DNA from: an uncultured Rhodospirillaceae bacterium | GTDB lineage: Bacteria > Pseudomonadota > Alphaproteobacteria > UBA9219 | Assembly (NCBI GenBank): GCA_964587125.1 | Contig: CAZPKC010000006.1 | Span: forward strand, 7,881-71,880 | Length of the DNA: 64,000 nt | Direction of reading: 5' to 3' | Shown here: positions 8,217 to 51,002 of the stretch, in pieces | Layout: every line of letters starts with the position of its first letter | How positions within the stretch are numbered: position 1 is the first letter of the stretch | Program-made: the position numbers and the translations under genes | The notes under the pieces: generated by a model | What the model saw: only the letters and a program-made list of their open reading frames with translations | Told to the model about the DNA's origin: nothing | Databases searched by the model: none

Positions 8217-8385
8217 AAAAAATTCCTTATACGTTGGAGCAAAAAAGTTAAACGAGAGATTCTCTTCTACCAAAACCCGGATAAATTCACCAGTTCAAAA
8301 TGTCAGAAACAATTTTCGTTAGGGAAGTATTAAGGGCTGTGGCGCTACGTTCTTCGGGCAACGAGAATCATTCAGGAGAAGCAAA

Positions 8386-10881: not shown

Positions 10882-12746
10882 TTGATTTCTCCAAAACGCA
10901 AACGCGTTAAGGCGCGATGCAGAAGGCTCGCGCCGTCCTCCGACATAATGGATTCCGGATGGAATTGAAATCCCATAAAGCGGACGCCTTCCATCGCGAT
11001 AATCCGGTCTGTCTCGTCGATATCGAATTTAATGTCCCCATGCGCCCGCGCGTTCGCGTTGAAGACAGGCGAAAACGAATTATAAAATCCAAGGCGGAAT
11101 TTTTTCCCCAGAAGGTCGACTTCGCGTTGCATGCCCTGCGTCGAATGAATTTGCCTTTCGACATCGATTTTTTTATTTACCGCCAAAGCCTGATGCCCGA
11201 GGCAGATTCCAAGCATCGGTTTCCGCCGTTTTGTTAAATCGCTTATGATCTCCTGCAAACGACGCATGCGCGGATGCGTCATATCTGTCGGATCGCCCGG
11301 ACCGGGCCCAACGATCACAATATCGCTGTCGTCTTTGGACGGATCAAACGCGAGGCTATCCACGACGGAAACTTCCGCCCGCATCGTGCGCAGCATATGC
11401 CCTGCCATGTGCGCGAAGTCATCTTCATTGTTCAAAATCGTTATTTTGACCTTATCAAGGGCAAGCGCGCCCTCGGCATAAGGGTTTTGGCGGTTCATCC
11501 AGAAAGCCGACAGTTTTTCGTTCCTCGCGCGCAAAATGGGCTCGACCTTGCGGCAGAGATCGTCGGTCAGGTACGGTTCTTTAAGCTGGGCCGCGCCCGT
11601 CAAAACGCCCAACAACCCCATCGCTTTCGCGCGGGATTCTTTGGCTTCGTTGTCGGGATCGGAATCGCGCACGATGCCGCCTCCCGCCTGAACGCGAAAC
11701 TTTCCGTCGCCGTCGATCTCCGCGCAACGGATGAGAATAGCGCAGTCCAAATCCCCGTTGGGGATGTCCGTGCGCGGATTTGAATAGATTCCGATTTCTC
11801 CCGCGTAATACCGGCGCGATTCCGGTTCGTATTTGTGAATGATGCGCGCGGCGCTTTCCATAGGCGAACCGACCACCGTCGGCGCATGAAGCGTGCGTCG
11901 CAGAGCCGATATCGTATCGCGCCCCCGACGCCCGACAAGGCGGTATTCCGTATGCACGACCGCGCCGATGTCGCGCAAAAAAGGCCCTTCGACCTCGCCG
12001 CCGTCCGGACAAATGACGCCCATAATTTTCATTTCCTCATCGACGACTTGAAACAGCTCGTTGATCTCCTTGGGGTCGGCGAGGAAACGGTCGAGGCGCG
12101 CCACGAATGTCCCTCGGTCTTCCTTGCGCAAGGTTCCCGCGATAGGAACCATGATTGTTTCGTTGCCGCGGACTTCAAGATGCCTTTCAGGCGAAGCGCC
12201 TATGATAAATTGGTTTTTGGATTTATCCTTCGGGTGAATATTGGCGAAAAGCACGGCCATATACTGGCCGCGCTGATTCAGGATTTTGCGATAGATGCTT
12301 AAAGCGGTTTGGATATCGAAAGCCTCGATAATTCCGGAAAAACGCCGCGCCAGAGTCGTCTGGGAGGCGTTGCCTTTTTCGATCTCGTTTTTCTGAAAAT
12401 CGCGGACGAGATCGGCGTACGCTTTGTCGGAAAGCGATGCCTCGATTTTCCCGTCCCACGCGATTTCGGACCCCGGCAGTTCGCCCGCCAGAGTTTCCGT
12501 CGGGATAGATAAAGCGATTTCGATTTCAAGCGCCAGAATAGGCTCGTCCCCTCGCGCTTCGAAGCCGCGTTCCCTGATGGCGCGGTAAGGCAAGGCAAAA
12601 GCAATATCGCGCCCCGTTTGGCGCGCAAGCTTATGAATGTCGTCGATTTTATCGAGCGCATGAAACGCTCCCTGAGCGCACAATACGCGCCCTTGTTTTT
12701 CGATCAGCGCAAAAGAACGGTTTGTGTTTATGGAATCGAGAAACAT
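10878..12746 (-). CDS. Fused chorismate-utilising enzyme (anthranilate-synthase-like, PIAGT type) with C-terminal class-I glutamine amidotransferase; TrpE(G)/PhzE-like, 622 aa
   Basis: Chorismate-binding domain motifs ASPERHLEV, MVPIAGT (Ala, not the PabB Lys) and GGGIVRDSDPDNEAKESRAKA. C-terminal GATase with catalytic Cys in GICLGHQ. Shorter than typical 730-aa TrpE(G) proteins. Confidence 0.7.
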   Translation of the reverse strand: MFLDSINTNRSFALIEKQGRVLCAQGAFHALDKIDDIHKLARQTGRDIAFALPYRAIRERGFEARGDEPILALEIEIALSIPTETLAGELPGSEIAWDGKIEASLSDKAYADLVRDFQKNEIEKGNASQTTLARRFSGIIEAFDIQTALSIYRKILNQRGQYMAVLFANIHPKDKSKNQFIIGASPERHLEVRGNETIMVPIAGTLRKEDRGTFVARLDRFLADPKEINELFQVVDEEMKIMGVICPDGGEVEGPFLRDIGAVVHTEYRLVGRRGRDTISALRRTLHAPTVVGSPMESAARIIHKYEPESRRYYAGEIGIYSNPRTDIPNGDLDCAILIRCAEIDGDGKFRVQAGGGIVRDSDPDNEAKESRAKAMGLLGVLTGAAQLKEPYLTDDLCRKVEPILRARNEKLSAFWMNRQNPYAEGALALDKVKITILNNEDDFAHMAGHMLRTMRAEVSVVDSLAFDPSKDDSDIVIVGPGPGDPTDMTHPRMRRLQEIISDLTKRRKPMLGICLGHQALAVNKKIDVERQIHSTQGMQREVDLLGKKFRLGFYNSFSPVFNANARAHGDIKFDIDETDRIIAMEGVRFMGFQFHPESIMSEDGASLLHRALTRLRFGEIK

Positions 12747-17519: not shown

Positions 17520-17746
17520 ATTTCAAACGCCGAATATGGATTAACAGATTATTGATGCACAATGAAGTCTTAATGTTTCTTTAGCAACAGAAAAAAATAC
17601 TTTCACCCCTCCTGTGTACGGGAAAAATGTGGGAATTTACCCGTTTTTCCCCGAAAACTCTTGTTTACACACGGTTTTTAATCCTATACACTTCCGCGTC
17701 GCTGTTTGGTCTCGAAAATCGACTTTTATGCCGAAGGGAAAATCCG

Positions 17747-34966: not shown

Positions 34967-35671
34967 TTAGAAAAACACATCGCCTGCGTTGATGTTGCGC
35001 TCGGTTCCGTCTTGCAAGCGCAGGTGAAGGTTGCCTTCGGAATCCAAATCCACAAATTCGCCGACGAGTTCGGTTTTGTCCGGAAGGCGGACGCGCAGGT
35101 TGCCTTTGCGGGCCTCTGCGAGCCACGCGGCGCGTATCGGAGCAAAGCCTTTTTCGTTCATACGGACGTACCACACATTGAAAGATTCCAAAATTGCATT
35201 CAAAACATCTTCGAGCGGGGGAAGGTTGCTTTTCTCCGCCGCAAGGCTTGTCGCCGGATAGAGTGGATTTTCGGGAATATTTTGTACGTTGAGGCCGATG
35301 CCTGCTATGAGAAAATCCCCGCCGGATTCCAGCAAAATGCCGCTGATTTTTTTGCCCTGCGCCAGAACATCGTTCGGCCATTTGAGTTCGACAATCGCAT
35401 CGGGCAAAAATCCGCGCACGACCTCGCTTATCGCCAGTGCCGCGACGAAGCTGTAATTTCCCCACGCGCGTTTTGGCAAAGGCGGGCGAAGAAGAACGGA
35501 AAAATATAAATTGCCTTCGGGGGATTGCCACGCGCGCCCCTGCCGTCCCCGTCCTGCGGTTTGGGTCAGAGCCCAAACAACCAAGCCTTCGGGAGCGCCG
35601 GTTTCCGCCGCCCTTTTGGCGTCGTCGTTCGTGCTTGCGGTCACCTCTATGCGGCGGATAGTGAACTTCAT
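34967..35671 (-). CDS. birA: Biotin--[acetyl-CoA-carboxylase] ligase (group I, no DNA-binding domain)
   Basis: ALTQTAGRGRQGRAWQSPEGNLYFSVLL; overlaps the nuoN stop. Confidence 0.85.
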   Translation of the reverse strand: MKFTIRRIEVTASTNDDAKRAAETGAPEGLVVWALTQTAGRGRQGRAWQSPEGNLYFSVLLRPPLPKRAWGNYSFVAALAISEVVRGFLPDAIVELKWPNDVLAQGKKISGILLESGGDFLIAGIGLNVQNIPENPLYPATSLAAEKSNLPPLEDVLNAILESFNVWYVRMNEKGFAPIRAAWLAEARKGNLRVRLPDKTELVGEFVDLDSEGNLHLRLQDGTERNINAGDVFF

Positions 35672-37140
35672 CAGCCTATAAATCCTTTTGCCGCGCTAAG
35701 CGCGCTATCGATCAACGGCGCGGGAACGAGCGCAAAACAAATCATCGCCAAGGATGAAAGCGCGAGAACGGTTTTGACGCCCCAATCCGGCAAGGGATCG
35801 ATGCCCATGAGAGGTTCGTCGAAATACATGATCTTGATGAGGCGCAGATAATAAGTCGCCGTCACGACGCTCGTCAAAACGCCGACGATCGCAAGCGGAA
35901 GCAAATCCGCTTTGACCGCCGCAAGGAACATGAAATATTTGCCGAAAAATCCCGCCAGCGGCGGAACACCCGCCAGAGAAAACATCAAAACCGCCATCGC
36001 CAGCGCCACAAGCGGATTGGTTTTCGAAAGGCCTGAAAGATCGACGATCGACTCGACGGCTTTGCCACGGCGGCGCAGGCACAAAATAACCGCGAAAGCG
36101 CCGAGCGTATTCAAAGCATAGATCGCAAAATAAATCAGGATGGCTTGAACGCCCGAAGCGCCTCCGACGACAAGCCCGATAAGGAGCGTACCGACGTTGG
36201 CGATGGAACTGTAGGCCAGAAGGCGTTTCAGGTTCGTTTGCACAAGTCCCGCGAACGCGCCCCAAAGCATCGAGGCTATGGAAATAAATATAATCACCTG
36301 ATGCGCCTGCGCCGTCAGGCCGATCATCGGCTGCAGCAAAAAGCGCGCGAATAAAGCCAGCGCCGCAAGCTTCGGCGCCGAGGCGAAAAACGCCGTCACG
36401 GGCGTGGGCGCGCCTTCGTAGACGTCCGGCGCCCACATATGAAAAGGCACGCCGGATATTTTAAATGCCAGCGCCGCGCAGACGAAAACCATCCCCGCGA
36501 CGACGCCCGGATGCGCCGCTCCGCGCAACGCGAACGCCAGATCGACGAAATCGGTCGTTCCGGCAAAACCGTAAATCAAAGAAATGCCGTAGAGCAAAAT
36601 CCCCGACGACAAAGCGCCGAGGACGAAATATTTCAGCCCCGCTTCGCTCGACCGCGCGTCGTCGCGCAAAAACGCCGCAAGGACATAGAGCGACAGGCTT
36701 TGAAGCTCCACTCCGACGTAAAGCGAAAGCAGATTGCTGGCCGAGATCATCAGCATCATGCCAAGCGCCGCGAAGAGCATCAAAACGGGATACTCGGGAC
36801 GTTCGCGCTTGCCGGATTCAAAATAGCTCCACGACAAAAGGATCGACAGCCCCGAAGCGCCGAGGACAATCGTTTTGGCAAAACGGGCGAAAGCGTCGTC
36901 CACGAATTGCGCGTTGAAAGCGAAAACAGGCAACGCGCCGTTCAGCAAAAGGCCAAGCCGCGACGGGCAAAACATCGTTGCAACGGCAAGGACAAAAACC
37001 GCAATCGCCAGAATGCCGATGTGCCGCGTCGCGCGCGCGCCGCAAACCGCAGCAGCGATAAGGGAGACGAGAGCCGCTACGGCAATCTCGATTTCCGGCA
37101 TCGCGACCATAAAGGATCGGGGATCAATCATGTTGCGCAC
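35671..37140 (-). CDS. nuoN: NADH-quinone oxidoreductase subunit N
   Basis: Polytopic membrane protein; last gene of the nuo operon. Confidence 0.85.
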   Translation of the reverse strand: MRNMIDPRSFMVAMPEIEIAVAALVSLIAAAVCGARATRHIGILAIAVFVLAVATMFCPSRLGLLLNGALPVFAFNAQFVDDAFARFAKTIVLGASGLSILLSWSYFESGKRERPEYPVLMLFAALGMMLMISASNLLSLYVGVELQSLSLYVLAAFLRDDARSSEAGLKYFVLGALSSGILLYGISLIYGFAGTTDFVDLAFALRGAAHPGVVAGMVFVCAALAFKISGVPFHMWAPDVYEGAPTPVTAFFASAPKLAALALFARFLLQPMIGLTAQAHQVIIFISIASMLWGAFAGLVQTNLKRLLAYSSIANVGTLLIGLVVGGASGVQAILIYFAIYALNTLGAFAVILCLRRRGKAVESIVDLSGLSKTNPLVALAMAVLMFSLAGVPPLAGFFGKYFMFLAAVKADLLPLAIVGVLTSVVTATYYLRLIKIMYFDEPLMGIDPLPDWGVKTVLALSSLAMICFALVPAPLIDSALSAAKGFIG

Positions 37141-38635
37141 TTTCAGCCTGCGCTTCGAAAAGAGTCAAAGTCCTTTCCAAAGTCGGCGCGTAAACAGTGT
37201 GGAAGGTCGAAGGATAAATGCCGATCCAAAAAACCAAAACGAGAAGCGGGGCAAAAACGGCGATCTCGCGCATGTTCAGATCGGACATAGCGCGAACATC
37301 CTCCTTATCGAGCACGCCGAAAAACAGGCGGCGATAAAGCCAAAGCATATAGCAAGCGCCGAAAATAATGCCCGTCGCCGCGAAGAAAGCAAACCAGCTA
37401 TTGGCCAAAAACGCGCCCTGCATGCTGAGAAATTCGCCGACGAAGCCGGAAGTGCCGGGCAGTCCTATCGCGGCCAGCATAAAGATCATGAACACCGCAG
37501 CATAACGCGGCATATTTGTTGCCATTCCTCCATAGCGCGAAATCTCGCGCGTATGCAGGCGGTCGTAAACAACGCCGACGCAGAGGAACAACGCGGCGGC
37601 GACGAAAGCGTGCGATATGATGACGAACATCGCGCCGTCGAAGCCTTGTTGGGTGAAGGTGAACAACCCCAATGTGACGTAGCCCATATGCGCGACGGAG
37701 GAATACGCGATGAGTTTTTTCATATCCGTTTGCGCCAAGGCAACAAGCGAGGCGTAGACAATCGCGATAAGGCTCAGGACGATCATCAGCGGCGCGAAAT
37801 ACTTGCTGGCTTCGGGAAGCATTTGAATAGAGACGCGAATGAAGCCGTAGGCTCCCATCTTCAGCAAAACGCCCGCGAGGATGACCGAACCTGCCGTGGG
37901 CGCTTCGACATGCGCGTAAGGCAACCACGTGTGGAACGGCCACAAAGGCGTTTTGACCGCGAATGATGCGAAAAACGCGAGCCACAACCAAAGGACCATT
38001 TCCTTGGGGAATTTGCCGCCCATCATCGCGGTCATATCGGTCGTGCCCGCATGAAGAACCATCGCGATGATCGCGATCAACATCAGAACCGAACCGAGAA
38101 GCGTATAGAGGAAAAACTTATAGGCCGCGTAGGTGCGTTTCTCTCCGCCCCACACGCCGATGATAAGAAACATCGGGATCAGCACGCCTTCGAAGAAGAC
38201 GTAAAACAATACGAAATCGAGGCTCGTGAACGTCCCGATCATCATCGTTTCGAGAACGAGAAGCGCGATCATGAATTCTTTGACCCGCGTTTTGACGCTT
38301 CCGATGGAGGAAAGAATACATAGCGGCGTCAGAATCGTCGAGATCATGACGAACCAAACCGATATGCCGTCGATGCCCTTGATATAGGCGATGCTGAAAG
38401 ACGGCATCCAGACGAAACGTTCCATAAGCTGAAAGCCCGTATTCGCCGAATCGAACCGTTGCAGCATGTCGAACGACAAAACGAGCGTCCCAAGCGAGAC
38501 TAAAAACGCGACTTTCTGAGCGATTTTGGCGCCTTCGTCGTTGCGGCTGTCGCCTTTGACAAACAACAAAATAAGAAACGCGCCGAAAAGCGGGAGAAAT
38601 GTGAGCGCGGAAAGGATGGGAAAGGTTGTCATCAT
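37124..38635 (-). CDS. nuoM: NADH-quinone oxidoreductase subunit M
   Basis: 503-aa antiporter-like subunit. Confidence 0.9.
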   Translation of the reverse strand: MMTTFPILSALTFLPLFGAFLILLFVKGDSRNDEGAKIAQKVAFLVSLGTLVLSFDMLQRFDSANTGFQLMERFVWMPSFSIAYIKGIDGISVWFVMISTILTPLCILSSIGSVKTRVKEFMIALLVLETMMIGTFTSLDFVLFYVFFEGVLIPMFLIIGVWGGEKRTYAAYKFFLYTLLGSVLMLIAIIAMVLHAGTTDMTAMMGGKFPKEMVLWLWLAFFASFAVKTPLWPFHTWLPYAHVEAPTAGSVILAGVLLKMGAYGFIRVSIQMLPEASKYFAPLMIVLSLIAIVYASLVALAQTDMKKLIAYSSVAHMGYVTLGLFTFTQQGFDGAMFVIISHAFVAAALFLCVGVVYDRLHTREISRYGGMATNMPRYAAVFMIFMLAAIGLPGTSGFVGEFLSMQGAFLANSWFAFFAATGIIFGACYMLWLYRRLFFGVLDKEDVRAMSDLNMREIAVFAPLLVLVFWIGIYPSTFHTVYAPTLERTLTLFEAQAESAQHD

Positions 38636-38644
38636 ACGGTCATT

Positions 38645-39514
38645 TCAGTGAGACGAAAGCGCGTAGGGTTTGATGGGACGGAAAAACTCTTCAGAATCGG
38701 AATAAACGCGAATGATACGATCGGCCGTTCCGTCAAAAAACAGTTCGCCAAGCGCAACGTCGATCATCGTCTTGAACGCAACATCGCCCTGCGGCAAGCC
38801 AAAGGATGCCGCATAGACTTGCAAGGGACTCGTTTTATCGAGAATCTTCACTTTGCCCGGATTGGCTTTATCGTAGCTGAGAAAATCGGAATAGGTTACG
38901 CCGGTCGCATCGGCTTTCTTCGTTTCGACTTCCTGCAAAATCGAAGAAAAATCGTTCATCTGCGGCAACGATTTGATTTGAGCCTTTGGGAATCTTACGG
39001 GAGCCAAAAAGCTGAAGGCTTCTCCGTCAAGCACCGAGATCGTATAGGCCGGATCGTTCGCGTCATCCGTTTTATGAATACGGTTTTCATCCGCGCGAAC
39101 GACGAGATACGTAGGCGCGTAAAAAAGCGGCGCGCTGAAATCAATCTCGCGCGCGCGGCCCGAAATCACGCCAATCCCGGTGCAAATGGCGTCGTAACGA
39201 TGCGTCGCGAGGCCCTCGACAACCGTTCCCCAATTCGTTTCTTCCGCCCATTCGATACGCAGGCTAAGCTTCTTGCCGATCTCTTCCATAATGTCGTGCG
39301 AAATGCCTTTGATCTCGCCGGTTTTCAAGTCCTTGAAAAGAACGGGGCTCCATATCGCATAGCCGCAGCGGATTGTCTTTGTTCGCATCACGCGGTCGAA
39401 CGCCGTTTCCTGTTTGGCGGGAGTCGCGTTTTCGCGCCCCGCAGGACGCAGGGCGACAACCAACAACGCGATAAGGGCGACGACGAGAGACAAAACCGCG
39501 ATTTTGTTTTTCAT
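38645..39514 (-). CDS. Family-3 periplasmic solute-binding protein (amino-acid-binding PBPb type), orphan, embedded between nuoL and nuoM
   Basis: Signal peptide MKNKIAVLSLVVALIALLVVA. Bilobal SBP_bac_3-like sequence (RCGYAIWSPVLFKD...DAICTGIGVISGRAREIDFSAP). Intergenic gaps of 4 nt and 9 nt to nuoL and nuoM. Confidence 0.65.
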   Translation of the reverse strand: MKNKIAVLSLVVALIALLVVALRPAGRENATPAKQETAFDRVMRTKTIRCGYAIWSPVLFKDLKTGEIKGISHDIMEEIGKKLSLRIEWAEETNWGTVVEGLATHRYDAICTGIGVISGRAREIDFSAPLFYAPTYLVVRADENRIHKTDDANDPAYTISVLDGEAFSFLAPVRFPKAQIKSLPQMNDFSSILQEVETKKADATGVTYSDFLSYDKANPGKVKILDKTSPLQVYAASFGLPQGDVAFKTMIDVALGELFFDGTADRIIRVYSDSEEFFRPIKPYALSSH

Positions 39515-39518
39515 GGAA

Positions 39519-41471
39519 TTACCCTTTCAGCCAAAACCAGGAGACAAAACCCGCCAATCCCACAACTATCGCTAAGGCATACGTATAGATATATCCGCTT
39601 TCGAGCGCGCTGACGCGCCGCGCCAGACGCAGGGATAACGCCGCGATCCCGTCGGGGCCGAAGCCGTCGATAAAGGCATCGTCGCCCTTTTTCCACAAAA
39701 AGTCGCCCATCAAACGCGTAGGCGCCGCGAACAAAGCGTCGTAAAGTTCGTCGAAGTAGAATTTATGATAAACAAAGCGATAGACGCTGCCGAATGCCGT
39801 CGAAACGATCGCGGGCATTTCGGGATTTCTGATATAAAAAACGTACGAAAGGGCGATGCCCGAGACCGCGACGATAAAAGGCAGCCATTTGTAAACGGCG
39901 CTTACGCGTTCCGCAGCGGCAATGGAATCATGCGCGGGCAAAACAAAAATCGCGCCGTTCCAGAACGCGTCCCTGCCTGCGCCGCCGAACCATTGATACG
40001 CGAAAAAGCCTGCGAATATCGCTCCCAACGCCAAAGGCACGAGCGGCCCCAGCATGATCCATGGCGATTCATGCGCGTGTTCAAGAACGCGTTCTTCTTC
40101 GCGAGGTTCGCCGTGGAATGTCATAAACAAAAGACGCCCCGAATAGAACGCCGTCATAAACGCGGCGCAAAGGCCGAGGACATAAGAGAACGTGCCGATG
40201 CTCGTTCCCCGTCCCAACGCGGAATTCAAAATCAGGTCTTTCGAATAAAATCCCGCAAAGCCGAAAACGCCGTCGATGCCTATGCCCGCCAGAGACAAAA
40301 AGCCGATTGCCATTAAGGTATAAGTCACGGGCGCCGCGCGACGCAAGCCGCCCATCTTGCGCATATCCTGCTCGCCCGACAAAGCGTGAATGACGGAACC
40401 TGCGCACAGGAAGAGAAGCGCTTTGAAGAACGCGTGCGTCATCAAATGGAATATGGACGCCGAATAAGCCGACACGCCCGCCGCGAAGAACATGTAGCCT
40501 AGCTGGCTTATCGTCGAATACGCGATGACGCGCTTGATGTCGAATTGCGTCAGGCCTATCGCGGCCGCGAAGATGCAAGTCAAAGCGCCTATGACCGCGA
40601 CGAAAGCCAAAGCGCCGGGCGCGTATTCGAATACCGGCGACATGCGCGCGACCATAAACACGCCCGCCGTCACCATCGTCGCGGCGTGAATCAAGGCCGA
40701 AACTGGCGTCGGGCCTTCCATTGCGTCGGGCAGCCACGTGTGCAAGCCCAACTGCGCCGATTTGCCCATCGCGCCCATAAACAGAAGGAGGCAAACGGTC
40801 GTCAATGCGGGAAAGGAATGGCCGAGAAAAATCCATTTTGCCGAAGCGAGCGCGGACGCTTTCAGAAACATTCCGGCGTAATCGAGCGAGCCGAACAACG
40901 TAAAGCACCCGAAAATTCCGAGAATAAAACCGAAATCGCCTATGCGGTTGACCAAGAACGCCTTGATCGACGCGTCGTTCGCGGCGGGCCTTTCGTACCA
41001 AAAATCGATGAGCAGGTACGACATCAATCCGACGCCCTCCCAGCCGAAAAACATCTGCAAAAGATTGGCCGAGGTCGCCAACATCGACATAAAAAAGGTG
41101 AAAAGGCTCAGGTACGCCATAAAGCGCGGCTTGCTTTTATCGGCGCTCATATACCCGATGGAATAAAGATGAACCATCGACGACACGCCGTTGACGACAA
41201 AAAGCATCACGGCGGCAAGCGTATCGATCTTGACGCCCCAGCTTACCGAGAGCGTTCCCGATTGAATCCAGTCGAACAAAACGCGGGTCGTGGGATGGCC
41301 TTGCAGCGCGACCTCGCGAAATAAATAAACCGACAGGCACGCCGCCAGAAGAACGCAGCCGCACGTAACGGCCTCTGAGGCTTTGTCTCCTATGCGCCTT
41401 CCAAACAATCCGGCGATACCCGCGCCAAGAAGGGGCAAAAAAACGACCGCAATGTCAAAAGGAAAGTTCAT
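39519..41471 (-). CDS. nuoL: NADH-quinone oxidoreductase subunit L
   Basis: 650 aa, antiporter-like with long C-terminal extension. Confidence 0.9.
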
Positions 41472-41779
41472 GGGTCCTTCATCAAGTTGGCGCGTTCGAC
41501 ATCGATGTCGCCGCGATTGCGGAAGTAGGAGACCAAAATTGCAAGGCCTATCGCGGTTTCGGCGGCGGCGACCGTCAAAACAAAAATCGTGAAAACCTGC
41601 CCGACCAGATTATGCTGAGTGACCGAAAACGCGACGAAATTGACGTTGACCGCAAGCAAGATCAGCTCGATCGACATCAAAATGACGATAATGTTGCGGC
41701 GATTGACGACGATGCCGACCAGGCCGATCGTAAACAAAATCGCGGCGACGATAAGAAAATGGGAAAGGCCTATGGTCAT
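41468..41779 (-). CDS. nuoK: NADH-quinone oxidoreductase subunit K
   Basis: 103 aa, 3 TM. Confidence 0.9.
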
Positions 41780-42384
41780 AGCTCCACCCCCTGCCCCGTC
41801 GGGACTTTTTTGATTTCAACGGCGTCGGCGACGGATATTCCGGTTTGTCGGCGCGTTTTTTGGCGGCGCGCGTCTTTGCGGGAGCGCAGCGTCAAGACAA
41901 TCGCGCCCGTCATCGCCACAAGCAAAATAATCCCCGAAACCTGAAACGGAAGAAAATAATCGGTGTAAAGAACCCGCCCTAGCGCGCGGGTGTTTTCGAC
42001 CGTTCCTTCGGACGACGCCAGCGCCGTTATCGCATGAGGTTCCGTGACCCACGCGCTCGCGGTTAGCACGAGCTGCGCCAAAAGCACGAGCGCAACCGCG
42101 AAGCCTGCGGGCAAATAACGCGTATAGCGCCGCTTCAAGGCGCGGAAATCGACGTCGAGCATCATGACGACGAACAGGAACAACACCGCGACCGCGCCGA
42201 CATAAACGATCAGAAGGATGAAGGCGATGAATTCCGCCCCCATCATCAAAAACAATCCGGCAGCGTTGAAAAAACACAGGATCAGAAACAACACCGCGAC
42301 AACGGGATTGCGCGCCGAAATAACCATAACGGCCGATGCCAGAAGAACGGCGGAGAAGAGGTAGAAGATGACGGATGTTATCAT
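41776..42384 (-). CDS. nuoJ: NADH-quinone oxidoreductase subunit J
   Basis: Start placed at [10 protein letters not shown] (M52 of the track ORF). The upstream extension is R/K-rich and non-membrane. Confidence 0.8.
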
Positions 42385-42391
42385 ATAATTA

Positions 42392-42877
42392 TCACCTGTA
42401 TTTCGCGTCCGCTTCGAGATTTGCGGCGACTTCCGCTTCCCATCTGTCGCCGTTCGAGAGAAGATGGTCTTTGGTATAGTATAACTCTTCGCGCGTTTCC
42501 GTACCGAATTCGAAATTCGGCCCTTCGACAATCGCATCCACGGGACACGCTTCTTGGCACAGACCGCAGTAAATACATTTTGTCATGTCGATATCGTAGC
42601 GCGTCGTACGGCGGATTCCTTTTTCGTTTGGCGCGGAATCGATCGTAATCGCCAGCGCCGGGCAAATAGCTTCGCATAGCTTGCACGCGATGCAGCGTTC
42701 TTCGCCGTTGGCATAACGGCGCAAAACATGCTCGCCGCGAAAACGCGGGCTCAGCGGGCCTTTTTCATACGGATAATTGATCGTGACCCTGCGCCGGAAC
42801 AGATAGGAAAAGGTCAGCGCGAGGCCGCGAAGTATTTCGTAGAGGGAAAAAGTTTTAATGGGGCGAAGAAAGTTCAT
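42392..42877 (-). CDS. nuoI: NADH-quinone oxidoreductase subunit I (2x[4Fe-4S] ferredoxin)
   Basis: [12 protein letters not shown] and [12 protein letters not shown]. Confidence 0.9.
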
Positions 42878-42886
42878 GCTTTTCCC

Positions 42887-43906
42887 CTATTTCGGCAACT
42901 TGTCGAACAGAACAAGATACCCTGATGTCACCACGACCCAAAGCAGCGATACCGGCAAAAGGACTTTCCAGCCGATGCGCATCAACTGGTCGTAGCGATA
43001 GCGCGGCAACGTCGCGCGCACCCACAAAAACACAAAAAGGCACAGGGCGATCTTGGCGGCGAACCAGACGATGCCCGGGATGAAATCGAGCGCAGGGATC
43101 GGCGAAAGCCAGCCGCCCAAAAACAAAATGCTGGTGATCGCGCTCAGCAAAATCATGTTGGCGTATTCGCTTAAGAAGAACATCGCGAACGCCATCGACG
43201 AATATTCGGTGTGAAAACCGCCGACGAGTTCGGATTCGCCTTCGGGAAGATCGAACGGATGCCGGTTCGTTTCCGCCAACGCGCAAATAAAAGTAACGAC
43301 GAACATCGGCGTCAAAAGGCCGAATGCGAACCAGCCGTTGCGCTGCGCTTCGACAATCGCCGAGAGATTCAGCGAACCCGCGCAGAGAAGGACGGTGACG
43401 ATCGCAAGCCCCGTCGATACCTCATAGGAAACCATCTGCGCGGCCGAGCGCAGCCCGCCCAAGAATGAGTATTTGGAGTTCGACGCCCATCCCGCAAAAA
43501 CAATTCCATAGACGCTGAGCGACGAAACGGCGATCAGATATAAAACGCCGACGTTGATGTCCGCCAAAACCACTCCGGCTTGAAACGGGATGACCGCCCA
43601 AGCCGCAAGCGCGAGGAAAAAAGCGAAAATCGGCGCGAGAAGGAATATGACTTTGTTCGCGCCCGTCGGCAGAACCGTTTCCTTGCCCAAAAGCTTCACG
43701 CCGTCCGCAACCGGCTGCAACAAACCAAAAGGCCCCGTCACGTTCGGCCCGCGCCGCAGTTGCATCGCGGCCATAACCCTGCGTTCGGCGTACGTAAGAT
43801 ACGCGACGGCGGCTAAAAGCGGCAGCACGACGCACAAGACCTTGAGGACGATCCAGAGGAGAGGCCAGACAGAAGGCCAAACGGTATTGAAGAAAAAGTC
43901 TTTCAT
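42887..43906 (-). CDS. nuoH: NADH-quinone oxidoreductase subunit H
   Basis: 339 aa membrane subunit. Confidence 0.9.
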
Positions 43907-43909
43907 GAT

Positions 43910-45955
43910 TTATTCCGGAGCCTCCTTTGAAAGAAGGGGCAGGATAACTTCGGCGCATTTCTTCATCGTCGGCGAGGCGCGGCTGATGGGATCGGTCGCA
44001 TAGAAATTCTCGATTGCGGGCGCGAACGGAATATTTTGAACGCTTCCCGCGCCGCCGAACCGCGACCACGCGGATTTTTCCGCAACGCCGATGTTGGCAA
44101 GCGCGGGAGCGCATTCGGCCATTTTCTCGCGCAGCTGCGTAATCGTGTCGAAAGGCAAAGGCGTTCCGAAAACGTCGGAGAAAGCGCGGATGATTTTCCA
44201 GTCCTCGCGCGCGTCGCCCGGCGGGAACGTCGCTTGCAACGCCAATTGCGGGCGGCCTTCGGTGTTGACGTAAGTTCCGGTCTTTTCGGTATAGGCCGCG
44301 CCCGGCAAAATCACGTCGGCATGATGCGCGCCTTTATCGCCGTGATGCCCTTGATAGATCACAAACGCATCTCCTAAATTTTTGAAATCGATTTCATCCG
44401 CGCCCAGAAGCCAGATCACATCCATACCGCCGCTAAGGATTTTGCGCGTTCCCGCGCCGCCCGTTTGCGGCAGAAAACCGAGATCGATTCCTCCCACGCG
44501 CGATGCCGCAAGCTGAAGGACATTGAACCCGTTCCAATCCTCGCGTATTGCATTAAAATGTTCGGCTAACTCTCTGACGGTTCTGTGTAAAGCAGCACCG
44601 TCTGAACGCGCCAAAGCACTCGCGCCGAGAATGAGCATCGGCTTTTTCGCGGATTTAAAAACCGCCGCGAATGCGCCTTCGCCGTTCATCAGATCGGAGA
44701 TGGATTGCGGCGTGTTGCCGATATATGCGTGCGGGTACGAAAGATCGGCCGGAGACCCTATGAGGCCTATGCGACAACCTCCACGCAGCCAGCGTTTGCG
44801 GATGCGCGCGTTGACCATCGTTCCCTCAACGCGCGGATTGGTTCCGATAAGCAAAATCGCATCGGCCTCTTCGATCCCCGCGATGCCGCTGTTCATCATA
44901 TAGGCCGCGCGACACGAAACGTCGTACTCCGCGCCGTCCTGCCTGCAATCCATGTTGGGCGAACCTATCGCCTCCATCAGGCATTTCAGCGCGAACATGG
45001 ATTCGCAATCCGCGAGGTCTCCCGCCAAGGCCGCGACGCGGGATGCCGCGCTGTCATGAAGTTTTTCGGCGATAACGGAGAAGGCTTCATCCCACGAAGC
45101 GGGAACGAGTTTTCCGTCACGGCGCACATAGGGCTTGTCGAGGCGTTGGCGTTTAAGCCCGTCGATAGCGAAGCGCGTTTTATCGTTGATCCATTCCTCG
45201 TTGATGCCGTCGTTGCGGCGAGGAAGGACGCGCATGACCTCGTTGCCGCGCGTATCGACGCGGATATTGCTGCCAATTGCGTCGAACACGTCGATGGTTT
45301 CGGTTTTCTGAAGTTCCCACGAGCGATAGGTAAAGGCCGCAGGTTTATTCGTCAAAGCCCCCGTGGGGCAGATGTCGATAAGATTGCCCGAAAGCTCGGA
45401 CGTCAGCGCGCGCGAAATATAGGTATCGATTTCAAGATTCTCGCCGCGATACATGCCGCCCAATTCGGGCGTGCCGCAAATCTCGTCGAGAAAACGGATG
45501 CAGCGCGTGCAATGGATGCAGCGCGTCATCGCGGTTTTGATAAGCGGCCCCAGTTCTTTTTCTTTAACGACGCGTTTGTCGTCTTTATACCGGCCGCAGG
45601 AACATCCATAGGCCACGGCTTCGTCCTGCAGATCGCATTCGCCGCCGCGGTCGCAGATGGGGCAATCGAGGGGGTGGTTGATGAGCAAAAGTTCCATCAC
45701 GCCTTGGCGCGCTTTTTTGACCATCGGCGTGTCTGTATGCACCACCATTCCCTCGGCGCAGGGTTGCGCGCAACTGGGAACTGGTTTCGGATTTTTTTCG
45801 ATTTCGACGAGGCACATGCGGCAATTGGCCGGAACGCTGAGCTTGTCGTGGCAGCAGAAATGCGGGATTTCGACGCCCGCCTGCTGCGCGGCCTGCAAAA
45901 TGCTCGTGCCCGCCGCGACTTCAAGTTGAATGCCATTGATGGTCAGTTTAGGCAT
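43910..45955 (-). CDS. nuoG: NADH-quinone oxidoreductase subunit G
   Basis: MPKLTINGIQLEV...; Fe-S cysteine clusters. Internal ATG chosen; the track ORF starts 9 nt upstream at an alternative start codon. Confidence 0.9.
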   Translation of the reverse strand: MPKLTINGIQLEVAAGTSILQAAQQAGVEIPHFCCHDKLSVPANCRMCLVEIEKNPKPVPSCAQPCAEGMVVHTDTPMVKKARQGVMELLLINHPLDCPICDRGGECDLQDEAVAYGCSCGRYKDDKRVVKEKELGPLIKTAMTRCIHCTRCIRFLDEICGTPELGGMYRGENLEIDTYISRALTSELSGNLIDICPTGALTNKPAAFTYRSWELQKTETIDVFDAIGSNIRVDTRGNEVMRVLPRRNDGINEEWINDKTRFAIDGLKRQRLDKPYVRRDGKLVPASWDEAFSVIAEKLHDSAASRVAALAGDLADCESMFALKCLMEAIGSPNMDCRQDGAEYDVSCRAAYMMNSGIAGIEEADAILLIGTNPRVEGTMVNARIRKRWLRGGCRIGLIGSPADLSYPHAYIGNTPQSISDLMNGEGAFAAVFKSAKKPMLILGASALARSDGAALHRTVRELAEHFNAIREDWNGFNVLQLAASRVGGIDLGFLPQTGGAGTRKILSGGMDVIWLLGADEIDFKNLGDAFVIYQGHHGDKGAHHADVILPGAAYTEKTGTYVNTEGRPQLALQATFPPGDAREDWKIIRAFSDVFGTPLPFDTITQLREKMAECAPALANIGVAEKSAWSRFGGAGSVQNIPFAPAIENFYATDPISRASPTMKKCAEVILPLLSKEAPE

Positions 45956-45964
45956 GCACTGCAC

Positions 45965-46155
45965 CGATAAAAAATGCCGTCATTCCGGAAAATTCGCTTT
46001 TTTGCCCCTGCTTGCAAAAATGCGAATTTATCCGGAATCCGATTTGCTTGGTTTGCTTACGGAAAGAGAACCAAATCGGATTCCGCATAAATTTTCTCTC
46101 GCTTTGCGAAGAGAAAATTTTGCGGAATGACGAGGATATATTGATGGCAGACGGG
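45965..46155. repeat. ~190-nt multi-hairpin element (three consecutive near-perfect stem-loops closed by an outer inverted repeat cgtcattccg/cggaatgacg), sitting between the GIY-YIG ORF and nuoG
   Basis: Read directly. Hairpin 1: attccggaaaattcgc...gcgaatttatccggaat. Hairpin 2: cggaatccgatttg...caaatcggattccg (14 bp perfect). Hairpin 3: aaattttctct...agagaaaattt. The outer ends (ccgtcattccg / cggaatgacgag) are complementary. Confidence 0.55.
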
Positions 46156-46449
46156 TTAGTTAAGATGGTCGTAGAGATCGATCCATTTCGGATTAAGCTT
46201 TTTAACAAGCTCGATCTTCCAAAGGCGTTTCCATTTTTTGACTTTCTTTTCAAAGGTAATGGCTTCGATTGCAGTTGGAAACTCGGCGCACCAGACAAGC
46301 TTTTTAAGGCCGTACTTTTTGGTATGTCCTTTGATAAGTCCTTCTCGATGCTCATGTGCGCGCCGCGCGATATTGTTTGTGACGCCGACATAGAGAGTGC
46401 CGTAAGGTTCGTCAGTGACGATATATACCCAAAAGCGCCTTTCATTCAT
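46156..46449 (-). CDS. GIY-YIG nuclease-family small protein (97 aa), inserted between nuoF and nuoG
   Basis: [29 protein letters not shown] matches the GIY-YIG motif (UPF0213/YhbQ-like). Its ATG overlaps the nuoF stop (ATGA). Confidence 0.7.
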
Positions 46450-47726
46450 GCCACCTTCGCTTTCTTGCGATAGTTTTCGATACGCTCGATCATAAGCGGC
46501 TTGAAGTGGCGGATGAGGCCTTGGATGGGCCAGACCGCGCCGTCGGCGAACGCGCAGATCGTGCGGCCTTCGATTTCCTTCGTCACGTCGAGCATCATGT
46601 CGATTTCGTCAACCGTCGCGTTGCCCTCGGCCATCCGCGTCATCATGCGCCAAAGCCAGCCCATGCCTTCGCGGCACGGCGTGCATTGGCCGCACGTTTC
46701 GTGCTTGTAAAAGCGGCTGATGCGCGCGACGGCGGAAATAATATCGGTTGATTTGTCCATCACGATCACCGCCGCCGTGCCGAGACTCGAATGAACGCTT
46801 TGCAGCGCGTCAAAATCCATCAGCACCGTGTCGCAGATTTCCTTGGGGATAAGCGGCATCGAGGAACCGCCGGGAATGACGGCAAGCAAATTATCCCAGC
46901 CGCCGCGAACGCCTCCGGCGTGTTTCTCGATAAGCTCTTTCAAGGGAATGCTCATCGCCTCTTCGACATTGCAGGGTTCGTTGACATGGCCGGAAAGGCA
47001 GAACAATTTCGTGCCGCTGTTTTTGGGACGTCCGAAGCTTGTATACCAATTCGCGCCGCGCCGGAGGATTTCAGGCACCGAGGCGAGCGTCTCGACGTTG
47101 TTGACCGTCGTCGGGCAGGAATAAAGTCCCGCGTTTGCCGGAAACGGCGGCTTGTTGCGTGGCTGGCCTTTTTTGCCTTCGAGGCTTTCCATGAGCGCGG
47201 TTTCTTCGCCGCAGATATAGCCGCCCGCCCCACGATGCAGATAAACGTCGCAATCCCATCCCGAACCCGCGGCGTTTTTGCCGAGCAGGCCGTAAGCATA
47301 AGCCTCGTCGATCGCCTGTTGCAGAATTTGGGCTTCGTTGAAAAATTCTCCGCGAATGTAGATATAGGCCGCATGCGCGTTGATCGCGAAGGCCGCGATG
47401 AGCGCGCCTTCGAGCAGACGATGCGGATCGTGGCGCAAAATATCGCGGTCCTTGCACGTTCCGGGTTCGGATTCGTCGGCGTTGACGAGAAGATAGTGCG
47501 GCTTCTCGGAGGGCTTCGGCATGAACGACCATTTCATGCCCGTGGGGAACCCTGCCCCGCCGCGTCCGCGCAAGCTCGATTTTTTGATTTCGTCGATGAT
47601 TGCGGATGCGCCTTTCCCGATGATTTCCGCCGTTTTATCCCAAACGCCGCGCCGCCGCGCGGCCGCGAGGTTCCAGCTCTCGAAGCCGTAAAGATTGGTG
47701 AAGACGCGATCTTTGTCTTTAAGCAT
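46446..47726 (-). CDS. nuoF: NADH-quinone oxidoreductase subunit F
   Basis: NAD/FMN-binding [10 protein letters not shown]; 4Fe-4S Cys motif. Confidence 0.95.
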
Positions 47727-48324
47727 CTGGTTTCGCCTTTTCTTTCAGGCTCGTCGGCCCGCTTTGGGCGCACGATCCGCGGCGTCCCGTTTGCGAGCCC
47801 GCTTTGGGTCTTTTGCCGACTTTCAGCGCGTCAAGAATATTTTCCATTGTTTCAGGCGTGAGGTCTTCGTAAACATCGTCGTTGATCTGAACCACCGGCG
47901 CGTTGACGCACGCGCCAAGGCATTCGACCTCGCATAGCGTAAATTTTCCGTCCCCCGTCGTTTCATCCATGCCGATGCCGAGTTTCTTTTGGCACGCGTG
48001 GACGACGCCGTCCGAGCCGCGCAGTCCGCACGAAATCGCCGTGCAGATTTGGACAAGGTTTTCGCCGACGGGCTTCAAATTGAACATCGTGTAGAAAGTG
48101 GCGACCTCGTAAACGCGCACGGGCGGCATATCGAGCATCTTTGCGACCGCGTCCATCGCGGCTTGAGGAAGCCAGTTGCCGCACTGCCGCTGCGCGAGGT
48201 CGAGAAGAGGTATCACGGCGCTGGCTTGGCGGCCTTGCGGATATTTGGCGATAATTTTCTGCGCCTGCGCGAGATTTTCGGCGGTAAAGGCGAAGGGTTC
48301 GGGCTGTTGGTTCGCTTTCTTCAT
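47719..48324 (-). CDS. nuoE: NADH-quinone oxidoreductase subunit E
   Basis: 2Fe-2S thioredoxin-like fold ([12 protein letters not shown]...CLGACVNAP). Confidence 0.9.
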
Positions 48325-49532
48325 CTATCCACCTCCCCGAACACAAGATCAAGGCTGCCGATGATCGCGACGGTATCGGCCAGCATATGGCCTTTGCAAA
48401 TTTCATCAATGGCTTGCAGATGCGCGAAACCCGTCGAGCGGATGTGGCAGCGGTACGGCCTGTTCGTGCCGTCCGCCACGAGGTAGACGCCGAATTCGCC
48501 TTTCGCGCTTTCAACTGCCGTGTAGGTTTCTCCGGCCGGAACGTGGAAGCCTTCGGAATAAAGTTTGAAGTGGTGAATCATCGCTTCCATCGACGTTTTC
48601 ATCTCGTCGCGGCGCGGCGGGGTCACTTTGCGGTCGTCGGATATAACAAGGCCTTCGGGCATGTCTTTCAGGCATTGGCGGATGATGCGCGCCGATTGGC
48701 GCATTTCGTTAAGCCGCACGAGATAACGCGCGAAGCAATCGCCCGTTTTCCCGACCGGTATGTCGAAATCGCACCGGTCGTAAACGTCGTAGGGCTGGGA
48801 CTTGCGCAAATCCCACGCGACGCCCGACGCGCGCAGCATCGGGCCCGAAAAGCCCCAATCGAGCGCCTGTTGCTTCGAAACAATGCCGATGTCCACCGTG
48901 CGTTGGCGGAAAATGCGGTTTCCGGTCAGAAGCTCTTCGAGATCGTCGATGAATTTGGGGAAATTCTCGGCCCACGCCTCGATATCTTCGGCAAGGCCTT
49001 CGGGCAAATCCTGATGCACGCCGCCGGGCCGGAAATAATTCGTGTGCATCCGCGCGCCGGACACGCGTTCGTAAAATTCCATCAGGATTTCGCGTTGTTC
49101 GAACCCCCACAAGGACGGCGTCACCGCGCCCAAGTCGATCGCAAACGTCGTGAGGCAGAGAAGATGATTCATGACGCGCGTGATTTCCGCGTACAGGACG
49201 CGGATATATTGCGCGCGCAAAGGCGGTTCGAGGCCGAGCAGTTTTTCTATCGCCAGAACGAACGCGTGCTCCTGCCCCAAAGGCGCCACGTAATCGAGGC
49301 GGTCGAAATAGGGAAGCGCCTGAAGATAGGTTTTGTATTCGATGAGCTTTTCCGTGCCGCGATGAAGAAGGCCGATATGCGGATCGGCGCGTTCGACGAC
49401 TTCGCCGTCCATTTCCAAAATCATGCGCAGGACTCCGTGCGCGGCAGGGTGTTGCGGGCCGAAATTGATCGTGAACGGCACGATCTTTTTGCCGTCGCGT
49501 TCCTCAGTCTGTTCGGGAAAGAAGTCGGTCAT
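48321..49532 (-). CDS. nuoD: NADH-quinone oxidoreductase subunit D
   Basis: Start at MTDFFPE (M16 of the track ORF). Confidence 0.9.
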
Positions 49533-50125
49533 TTTTCCCCGTCTCCCCGAAGTTGCACGTCCGTCATGCCTTCCCAAGGACTTAGGAAATCGAAATTGCG
49601 GAAGTCCTGCGGAAGCTTGACCGGCTCGTACACGACGCGTTTCTGATCCGCGTCATAACGAACTTCGACGTAGCCGGTCAGAGGAAAATCCTTGCAGAGC
49701 GGATGCCCTTCGAATCCGTAATCGGTCAGAATACGGCGCAAATCGGGATGGCCCGAAAAAGCGATGCCGAACATGTCCCACGCCTCGCGCTCGAACCAGC
49801 CTGCGGATTTAAAAACGCCCGTTGCCGTCGGAACAGGCGTATTTTCGTCAGTATGAAGTTTGACGCGTATTCGCGCGTTAAACTTCAGGCTGAGAAGCTG
49901 GTAGACGACTTCAAAGCGCTCGGGACGGTCGGGATAATCCGCGCCGCAGATATCCATAAGCTGGCTCATCATGATTTTGGGATCGTCGCGCAGAATTTGC
50001 AAAACCTCGACGATGCGCGCGCGCGGCACCGCGACCGACAATTCGCCGAGATCGACGGACGATTGAATGACTGCCGTGCCGAGGGCGCGGAGGACTTCGT
50101 CTCGAAGGTCTTCAATCGGAAACAT
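49529..50125 (-). CDS. nuoC: NADH-quinone oxidoreductase subunit C
   Basis: Start at MFPIEDL (internal Met). The track ORF's upstream extension is Arg-rich and runs through the nuoB region. Confidence 0.8.
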
Positions 50126-50127
50126 GA

Positions 50128-50643
50128 TTACACCCTGCGGATGACTTTTTTGCCGCGCCTGATCTTGCGCTGCAATTGCAAAAGCCCGTACACAAGCGCC
50201 TCCGCCGACGGCGGGCAACCCGGAATGTAGATATCGACGGGAACGATGCGGTCGCACCCGCGCACTACCGAATAGGAATAATGGTAATAGCCGCCGCCGT
50301 TCGCGCAACTTCCCATCGAGATGACCCAGCGCGGCTCCGGCATTTGGTCGTAGAGCCTGCGCAATGCCGGAGCCATTTTGTTGGTCAAAGTTCCCGCCAC
50401 GATCATTACGTCGGATTGGCGCGGCGAAGGCCGCGGCATCATGCCGTAACGGTCGAGGTCATAGCGGCTCATGAACGCGTGGATCATTTCGATGCCGCAG
50501 CACGCCAAGCCGAACGTCATCGGCCACATAGATCCCGCGCGCGCCCACGTCAGAAGATCGTCGATTTTCGCCAGAACGAAGTTCTTGCCTTCACCCTCCT
50601 CGCTCGGCTGCGCGGCAATTTGGCTTGGATTGGTTATTCCCAT
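50128..50643 (-). CDS. nuoB: NADH-quinone oxidoreductase subunit B
   Basis: [10 protein letters not shown]. An aaggag Shine-Dalgarno lies 7 nt upstream of the internal ATG (MGITNP...). Confidence 0.9.
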
Positions 50644-51002
50644 TCCAAGGCTCCTTTCTTCCATTCATAGACAAAGCCTATGGCAAGCACCAAAAGGAAC
50701 AGCATCATCGACAAAAATCCGGCCAAGCCGATGTCGCCGAGCGCAATCGCCCACGGGAAAAGAAACGCGAGTTCGAGATCGAAGATGATAAATAAAATGG
50801 CGACAAGATAAAAACGCACGTCGAATTTGGCGCGCGCGTCTCCGAAAGCCGGAAAGCCGCATTCGTAGGCGGAATTCTTCTCGGCATCCGGTTTTTGCTT
50901 GGCCAAAAGAAAGGAAAGCCCGACGGCGGCAAGGGCGACCGCAAAAGCGACGCCAAGAAAGATCAGAATGGGAAGATAGTCGATCAAAAGGCCGCTGAGC
51001 AT
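50634..51002 (-). CDS. nuoA: NADH-quinone oxidoreductase subunit A
   Basis: 122 aa, 3 TM; first gene of the operon. Confidence 0.9.

Follow-up and report, generated by a model that had tools for sequence, protein, structure and literature searches.

An amino-acid-type binding-protein gene between nuoL and nuoM of an uncultured alphaproteobacterium belongs to an expanded, lineage-specific family

Introduction

The GlnHPQ system of Escherichia coli (polar amino acid transporter family, PAAT, TC 3.A.1.3) has one permease gene and one ATPase gene, and so does the family to which we assign a solute-binding protein (SBP) gene found in an unusual place, between nuoL and nuoM in the complex I operon of an uncultured Rhodospirillaceae bacterium (assembly GCA_964587125.1, contig CAZPKC010000006.1). 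The gene lies in a 64,000-nucleotide stretch of this contig, here called the window, and its predicted product shares its fold with E. coli GlnBP, as judged by Foldseek. In contrast to GlnHPQ, the family has 1–11 SBP genes per operon and many that are unlinked, and the window SBP carries an additional N-terminal helix motif (ETxFxRVMRT) and an invariant pair of cysteines, is unlinked to a translocator and falls short of the equivalog cutoffs for named proteins. We find that it is a member of an unnamed, lineage-specific SBP_bac_3 subfamily, in a place that is unusual but explicable, and we favour, with moderate confidence, the reading that it is a functional periplasmic SBP, probably membrane-tethered, that feeds a shared GlnPQ-like translocator encoded elsewhere, is expressed by read-through from nuo and has no role in complex I.

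Translocators that accept several SBPs have been described, namely HisQMP, which works with HisJ and ArgT (the lysine-arginine-ornithine protein, LAO; as cited in PMC8938411 and PMC7170509), and Cbc of Pseudomonas aeruginosa, to which CaiX and BetX, both orphans, are recruited (Chen et al. 2010; Thomas 2010, 'Homes for the orphans'; both as cited in PMC8938411 and PMC7170509). As presented in these citing papers, several specificities converge on one translocator and some of the SBPs are encoded apart from it, which is the mechanism that we propose for the window SBP; those systems comprise two or three SBPs, whereas the window family, for which we propose such sharing, has up to 11 per operon. 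An orphan SBP inside a non-transport housekeeping operon also has a precedent in MsBP of marine Synechococcus, which is conserved in the mreBCD operon (PMC8938411). Unlike the window SBP, MsBP is a cluster D, sugar-type protein of Cyanobacteria with mreBCD as its host and without a large radiation of paralogues.

The nuo/nqo operons of Paracoccus denitrificans (URF1–6) and Rhodobacter capsulatus reportedly contain unidentified reading frames (URFs), which are non-complex-I frames running in the same direction among the nuo genes, as in the window operon. None of them is known to lie between nuoL and nuoM or to be an SBP. An SBP_bac_3-like periplasmic protein, MxaJ (or MoxJ), is encoded in the methanol dehydrogenase operon and resembles the window SBP in being a protein of this type inside a respiratory dehydrogenase operon; its gene is single and fixed, whereas the window family occurs as variable arrays with its own ATP-binding cassette (ABC) translocator. 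MoxJ-type NCBIfam models were absent from the matches of the window SBP at E ≤ 1e-3, and in the literature we found no description of the SBP expansion or of the nuoL-SBP-nuoM arrangement.

Results

The window gene is an intact open reading frame (ORF) whose 289-residue product matches SBP_bac_3 over residues 55–271 (E = 8.2e-21, 74.6 bits against a gathering cutoff of 26.4). Besides this, Pfam returned only a sub-cutoff match to Lig_chan-Glu_bd, and there was no homology to the 14 core subunits of complex I. These results bear out the preliminary description of a complete family-3 SBP gene and identify a true SBP, as opposed to the complex I URF unrelated to SBPs that the same description had envisaged as an alternative outcome. 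In a plasmid collection, the only matches were distant ones (≤28% identity) to rhizobial and Ralstonia SBPs.

An AlphaFold model built with 32 homologues (predicted local distance difference test score 91.6) shows a helix at residues 3–22, a low-confidence linker and a two-lobed alpha/beta fold. The top Foldseek matches in the PDB were all of amino-acid type, comprising AncCDT-1 (5T0W), a tryptophan-binding SBP (9E2B), a cystine-type SBP of Liberibacter, GlnBP, LAO and ArgBP, with E-values of 1e-21 to 1e-17 for AncCDT-1, 9E2B, GlnBP and LAO. Target-normalised template-modelling scores were 0.83–0.90, with a root-mean-square deviation of ~2 Å, for 5T0W, 9E2B, 8EYZ and 6SVF, and mostly 0.8–0.9 across the top matches. 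A profile search of PDB sequences agreed in pointing to amino-acid-type SBPs, with AncCDT-1, a binding-protein ancestor, as the strongest match (E = 3.5e-41); reconstructed ancestors are consensus-like and tend towards high scores.

Since the best PDB sequence matches include the AncCDT series and cyclohexadienyl dehydratases, we considered whether the protein binds its ligand outside transport, as a buffer or scavenger, or has become a cyclohexadienyl-dehydratase-like enzyme evolved from an SBP, a reading that would also accommodate the missing alpha-ammonium aspartate and the want of a translocator nearby, both described below. The real dehydratases 5HPQ and 3KBR, however, reached only ~1e-12 to 1e-13 in the profile search, some 30 orders of magnitude short of AncCDT-1, and such an enzyme was rejected as the leading explanation. 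Paralogues embedded between permease and ATPase genes likewise speak against a non-transport binder, which we regard as improbable.

Positions of the binding pocket were aligned through AncCDT-1 (5T0W) and scored in 181 family members. The predicted pocket residues are W55, W95, G115, R120 and T207, of which W55 and W95 would form an aromatic sandwich. R120 aligns with the carboxylate-binding arginine, which we take to be R75 of GlnBP and R77 of LAO; it is kept throughout the orthologue clade (eight of eight) and occurs in 125 of the 181 family members. Position 115 is Trp in 109 of the 181, and Gly in the window SBP and in five of its six nuoL–nuoM orthologues. Whereas such pocket positions vary widely, scaffold positions (D108, D202, G70, Y52, K200, C50 and C111) are more than 98% conserved, a combination that fits many specificities carried on one docking scaffold; C50 and C111 probably form a disulfide. 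The hallmark of the family in the mature domain is ETxF[DE]RVMRTxTIRCGY.

The N-terminus reads MKNK, then 18 uncharged residues, then RPAG and the linker, with no AxA cleavage motif, and the nuo orthologues have in common an uncharged helix of 18–21 residues ahead of RP(A/G)G and a linker, again with no AxA. This is unlike the paralogues at loci L009, L013, L017 and L027 (locus numbers refer to our set of relatives), whose signal peptides end in PAFA directly before AEKE and are of textbook type, and it suggests that the window SBP is likely to be membrane-tethered. The preliminary description had given the gene its own signal peptide; an export signal is indeed present, but an uncleaved membrane anchor appears at least as likely as a signal that is cleaved.

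The SBP gene lies inside the nuo operon between nuoL and nuoM and on their strand, as initially described, and the spacers of 4 and 9 nt read directly from the junctions are exactly those first given (Table 1). The junction sequences are ...GGG TAA ttcc ATG AAA AAC... and ...CAC TGA aatgaccgt ATG ATG ACA..., the second spacer becoming 12 nt if nuoM starts at its second ATG. The operon is ~15 kb long from nuoA to nuoN, and the spacing suggests that the SBP gene is co-transcribed with it. A promoter scan stayed at background (12 promoter-like sites against 9.0 ± 2.8 in shuffled sequence), and a terminator scan found none at either SBP junction. An antisense ORF (38648..39613, plus strand) was set aside, since it shadows the SBP gene on the minus strand, for which the support is strong. 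The operon contains a second non-complex-I frame, a GIY-YIG URF that shares 4 nt with the end of nuoF.

Table 1 Features of the window (positions within the 64,000 nucleotides) and SBP paralogues wedged into operons of relatives (positions within each locus).
Feature	Position	Strand	Basis or remark
SBP_bac_3 gene, 289 aa, ATG start	38645..39514	minus	ORF and translation, Pfam, AlphaFold, Foldseek, neighbour-joining orthologue clade
Predicted export signal MKNKIAVLSLVVALIALLVVAL, codons 1-22	39449..39514	minus	predicted helix 3-22, no AxA motif
Linker of ~12 residues RPAGRENATPAKQ, codons 23-35	39410-39448	minus	low-confidence stretch of model
Mature periplasmic binding domain, residues ~36-289	38648..39409	minus	family alignments, profile alignment to 5T0W
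nuoL, 650 aa, directly upstream of SBP gene	39519..41471	minus	Pfam Proton_antipo_N, Proton_antipo_M, NADH5_C
nuoM, 503 aa (502 from second ATG), directly downstream	37124..38635	minus	Pfam Proton_antipo_M, Oxidored_q5_N; gene call
nuoL/SBP spacer, 4 nt (ttcc), nuoL stop TAA to SBP ATG	39515..39518	minus	read directly
SBP/nuoM spacer, 9 nt (aatgaccgt), SBP stop TGA to nuoM start	38636..38644	minus	read directly
Host unit nuoA-B-C-D-E-F-(GIY-YIG URF)-G-H-I-J-K-L-(SBP)-M-N	35671..51002	minus	Pfam and gene calls
nuoA (operon end)	50634-51002	minus	Pfam and gene calls
nuoN (operon end)	35671-37140	minus	Pfam and gene calls
birA, directly after nuoN	34967-35671	minus	gene calls
GIY-YIG-domain URF, 97 aa, nuoF/nuoG junction	46156-46449	minus	gene call and Pfam
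PBP_like_2 (phosphate-binding-protein-like) gene	7467-8273	minus	
Methyl-accepting chemotaxis protein, sCache_3 sensor domain	8386-10203	plus	
TpsA-like exoprotein, 984 aa	14565-17519	minus	TPS domain
ShlB/FhaC-type outer-membrane partner	17627-19501	plus	POTRA_2 and ShlB
Wedges nuoC/nuoD and nuoD/nuoE	L078 6182-10670	co-directional	
Wedge nuoF/nuoG	L026 6293-9910	co-directional	
Wedge nuoI/nuoJ	L069 1048-3181	co-directional	
Copy ahead of nuoK	L036		
Wedge ntrY/ntrX	L044 3124-7863	co-directional	
Wedge pyrG/kdsA	L038 5311-8725	co-directional	
Copy after purL	L006		
Copy before birA	L079		

As first reported, no permease or ATPase gene adjoins the SBP gene. tblastn with the cognate permease and ATPase of the family found none in the 64-kb window, Pfam scans of 30 further window ORFs revealed no ABC component, and no ABC gene occurs in the ~4.4 kb and ~6.8 kb past the window ends, where LpxK, KdtA, VIT1 and a retroelement are encoded. 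Over the window and ~11 kb beyond it, the gene is thus not linked to a permease of HisM/GlnP type or an ATPase of HisP/GlnQ type.

Related genomes carry orthologues of the SBP at this junction. A neighbour-joining tree unites in one clade the window SBP and nuoL–nuoM copies from six other genomes (L005, L006, L007, L008, L086 and L069), to which the window SBP is 53–70% identical; the clade member of L006 is the copy adjoining nuoM, that of L069 is the second of five, and L087 contributes a relocated single copy outside nuo. At the same loci, identity to the window is 66–79% for NuoL, 71–81% for NuoM and 51–68% for BirA, and the presence of intact orthologues at an identity comparable to that of BirA indicates that the SBP gene is old, intact and under purifying selection. 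The preliminary description had considered that the gene might be absent from all relatives and decaying; instead, it is conserved and intact. The G+C content of the gene (~0.50–0.54 against 0.55–0.58 in the flanking nuo genes) is slightly low, as a recently inserted passenger or a decaying gene without function might show. Against this stand the intact ORF, its recurrence in one slot across genomes whose NuoL is only 66–79% identical, a pocket signature kept among the orthologues, and the identical protein recovered from four independent metagenome assemblies (peat and bog), each time between nuoL and nuoM. These conservation data effectively refute the passenger or decay explanation, which is extremely unlikely.

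The wider family is strongly expanded and was seen only in metagenome-assembled genomes (MAGs) of uncultured Alphaproteobacteria. A large protein database held 58 homologues (30–69% identity), all of them SBP_bac_3 proteins, and a scan of one genome per species gave 182 relatives, from which 78 loci were kept, all from MAGs. The MAGs are labelled Alphaproteobacteria, Micavibrio, Rhodospirillales or 'Bdellovibrionales/Pseudobdellovibrionaceae', the last being explained by the placement of Micavibrio in Bdellovibrionales at NCBI; going by this placement, the lineage would presumably correspond to Micavibrionales of GTDB. Two contigs labelled as unrelated phyla, L021 (Acidobacteria) and L045 (Planktothrix), carry the same permease-SBP-ATPase system and were probably mis-binned.

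The genes of two homologues on long contigs, P0029 (42% identity to the window SBP) and P0035 (36%), stand in operons built as BPD_transp_1 (221 aa)-SBP-SBP-ABC_tran (242–244 aa). At L083, for example, the permease occupies 9316-9981 and the ATPase 11677-12411. With this permease and ATPase of the long contigs as tblastn queries against the kept loci, we located a permease and/or ATPase gene beside SBP arrays at 23 loci, with 1–11 SBP genes each, the paralogues in permease-SBP(n)-ATPase operons being 36–53% identical to the window SBP. The best NCBIfam match was GlnP for the permease (E = 1e-21) and ArtP/GlnQ for the ATPase (E ~1e-50). Among 186 SBP copies extracted from the loci, of which 181 entered the alignment and the neighbour-joining tree, 84 were linked to the translocator, 41 stood in arrays with no translocator in view, 40 were single, 18 lay between nuoL and nuoM and three were at other nuo or birA junctions. 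Single MAGs yielded at least 9–10 SBP copies in the few loci recovered, and one relative (SRP278252_co1_172) has both translocator-linked (L020) and unlinked copies (L014 and L073). The permease is far better conserved between genomes (55–90% identity; 1704 homologues at E < 1e-30) than are the SBPs (30–70%), as would be expected of a translocator shared by many SBPs. When a permease encoded on the chromosome of an 'uncultured Micavibrio sp.' served as the query, there were 1754 matches, and none of the best 120 (at least 73% identity) bore the name of a cultured species.

The largest array, at L017 (2157-12707, from an uncultured Micavibrio sp. MAG), comprises a permease gene, 11 tandem SBP paralogues and an ATPase gene in one operon, and L027 (4374-12734) has the same layout with eight SBP genes. 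Each of these SBP genes encodes its own classical signal peptide, and most consecutive pairs overlap by ATGA. We know of no other ABC operon with as many binding-protein genes as L017.

The preliminary description had proposed that the orphan SBP is a sensor partner. In that case the ligand-loaded protein would dock on a chemoreceptor, a histidine kinase or another signalling protein, and its placement in nuo would tie the signal to expression of the respiratory chain. The gene is indeed unlinked to a transporter, SBP scaffolds are known to have been co-opted for signalling (PMC8938411), Venus flytrap domains of BvgS are among the distant PDB matches, and one paralogue lies between ntrY and ntrX (L044). 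The window gene, however, is flanked by nuoL and nuoM and not by a kinase or chemoreceptor gene, unlike what a partnership of the LuxP/LuxQ, TorT/TorS or ChvE/VirA type would lead one to expect; the sole chemoreceptor of the window lies at a distance of 28 kb, where its partner is another protein, of PBP_like_2 type; and transcription together with nuo cannot by itself regulate nuo. Outside the orthologue clade, the next branches in the tree include translocator-linked copies (L009_2248 and L013_5880), the closest being L009_2248, which at 52–53% identity directly adjoins the permease gene, and close paralogues (up to 53% identity) sit in permease-SBP-ATPase operons. Given the many unrelated operons into which the family has been inserted, a wedge like the others is the simplest account of the ntrY–ntrX case. 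The sensor proposal is therefore not supported, and we judge it unlikely.

These insertions are widespread. SBP paralogues occur at six nuo junctions, counting that between nuoL and nuoM, and within other, unrelated operons (Table 1), the wedge spacers at L078, L044, L038, L026 and L069 measuring −4 to ~60 nt, with no sign of a mobile element. Among the 36 single copies that were examined, 25 lie within 120 nt of a gene in the same direction, and those neighbours that are annotated are unrelated housekeeping genes; besides those in Table 1, neighbours on the upstream side include secA, rpoN, nusG, petA and genes for a CNNM/CorC protein and a radical-SAM protein, and neighbours on the downstream side include map, RNase J and trxB. 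Wedging into so many unrelated operons suggests that the location is a general habit of the family, with no tie to respiration. How many of the junctions fall in nuo is not evidence of enrichment, because two biases raise the number: loci closest in sequence to a nuo-embedded query were ranked first, and no other housekeeping operon is as long as nuo. We also considered a mobile cassette and rejected it: spacers of −4 to +14 nt in the arrays, mostly ATGA overlaps, and of 4 and 9 nt in the window leave no room for repeats or att sites.

The position of the gene could instead mean that an anchored periplasmic SBP made beside NuoL and NuoM binds the membrane arm of complex I as an accessory or assembly factor. 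The nuoL–nuoM position is kept in eight genomes with tight spacing, paralogues occur at five further nuo junctions, and the N-terminus resembles a membrane anchor. Alphaproteobacterial complex I has supernumerary subunits, of which the three known in Paracoccus are not SBP-like (PMC8115037). The number of copies in the slot, however, is one in five genomes, four in two and five in one, and the four of L012 come from other, differing paralogue groups, which is unlike a stoichiometric subunit. Moreover, the orthologue at L087 has left the nuo operon, the canonical ligand-binding arginine and the residues of the aromatic sandwich are retained, the family is demonstrably of transporter type, as its permease/ATPase operons show, and the same wedging is seen in non-respiratory operons. 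We consider an accessory or assembly factor very unlikely. The suggestion in the preliminary description that the gene couples a ligand signal to complex I expression or assembly is not supported, in view of the variable slot number, the ABC-linked sister branch and the wedges in unrelated operons. It is likewise highly improbable that the nuo-embedded SBP is a new supernumerary subunit on the periplasmic face, coupling nutrient capture or ligand to the proton-pumping modules; if it were, the recurrence at six nuo junctions would be meaningful and not a sampling effect.

Several nuo loci of relatives showed further peculiarities. At L069 (5589-9918), three of the five slot copies are 78–82% identical to one another, and the N-terminal ~40 residues of two of the three are near-identical to those of the orthologue of the window SBP, suggesting recent tandem duplication or gene conversion within the operon. 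At L036 (4459-6124, Kiruna_bin-02063), nuoL is followed not by nuoM or an SBP gene but by tRNA-Met (4731-4805) and a 370-aa ORF that resembles a P4-type integrase by eye only; the operon may be interrupted past nuoL by an integrated element, or else the contig may be a chimera. Between nuoJ and nuoK, a gap of 0.6–1 kb with no SBP or nuo gene is present at L005 (307-1255), L006 (1045-2013) and L007 (3962-4578), unlike in the window, where the two genes overlap, so that this junction of the operon is variable too.

Discussion

In the explanation that we favour, the nuo polycistronic mRNA, long and constitutively transcribed, would carry the SBP gene by read-through, so that no promoter of its own would be needed. 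The SBP would be exported, probably remain anchored in the inner membrane, bind its own, probably carboxylate-bearing ligand and pass it on to a translocator of GlnPQ type whose genes lie at another place in the genome. The lineage would thereby maintain one 221-aa permease gene, one ~242-aa ATPase gene and many diversified SBP paralogues, partly placed between the permease and ATPase genes and otherwise scattered as 'orphans', the window copy being one of the latter. Because the translocator has been seen only in relatives, we infer the step in which it is shared. In this explanation, the place of the gene owes nothing to a function in complex I.

Several points weigh against this explanation. 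The translocator of this genome was not found in ~75 kb of one contig. The occurrence of paralogues at six nuo junctions could in principle mean a link to respiration, though that count is biased. NCBIfam equivalog cutoffs are not reached, with 60.7 bits for EhuB (cutoff 190.9), 55.4 for the LAO subfamily (256) and 46.2 for GlnH (303), which implies that the protein represents a distinct subfamily and not a component of a named transporter. Finally, T207 occupies the position of the aspartate that binds the alpha-ammonium group, presumably D157 in GlnBP and D161 in LAO, and the closest orthologues have T, A, S or G there; Asp or Glu is found in 119 of the 181 family members, with Glu at L069 and L087. 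With the aspartate replaced, the ligand may not be an ordinary amino acid, and the predicted pocket most likely accepts a carboxylate-bearing small molecule that is not necessarily a standard alpha-amino acid; T207 together with G115 points away from a plain L-amino acid.

The outcome for the biology of complex I is a negative one, in that the inserted gene is very probably no more than a passenger of the operon and should not be annotated as a subunit or regulator. More useful is the wider pattern of one conserved GlnPQ-like importer, a large and fast-diversifying set of SBPs and wedge insertion, which illustrates from nature how new genes can come to be expressed once they are inserted into polycistronic units. 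If the family imports prey-derived compounds, it bears on the feeding of small-genome, probably predatory bacteria. The one genome publication for a cultured relative, that on M. aeruginosavorus ARL-13, reports no transporter known to carry amino acids, peptides or amines (PMC3189940).

Elsewhere in the window, the PBP_like_2 gene and the chemoreceptor gene are divergent neighbours, and this pair is the better candidate if any binding protein of the window works with a sensor. The genes for the TpsA-like exoprotein and its ShlB/FhaC-type partner form a two-partner secretion pair, which fits a surface-attacking or predatory lifestyle. Just past the left end of the window (L089 1-9171), an RVT_1 reverse transcriptase gene adjoins a bAvd gene, suggesting a diversity-generating retroelement. 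Two large ORFs, of 860 and 919 aa, come after it, and next to them, within the window, lies a 917-aa ORF (3178-5931, plus strand); all three are without a Pfam match.

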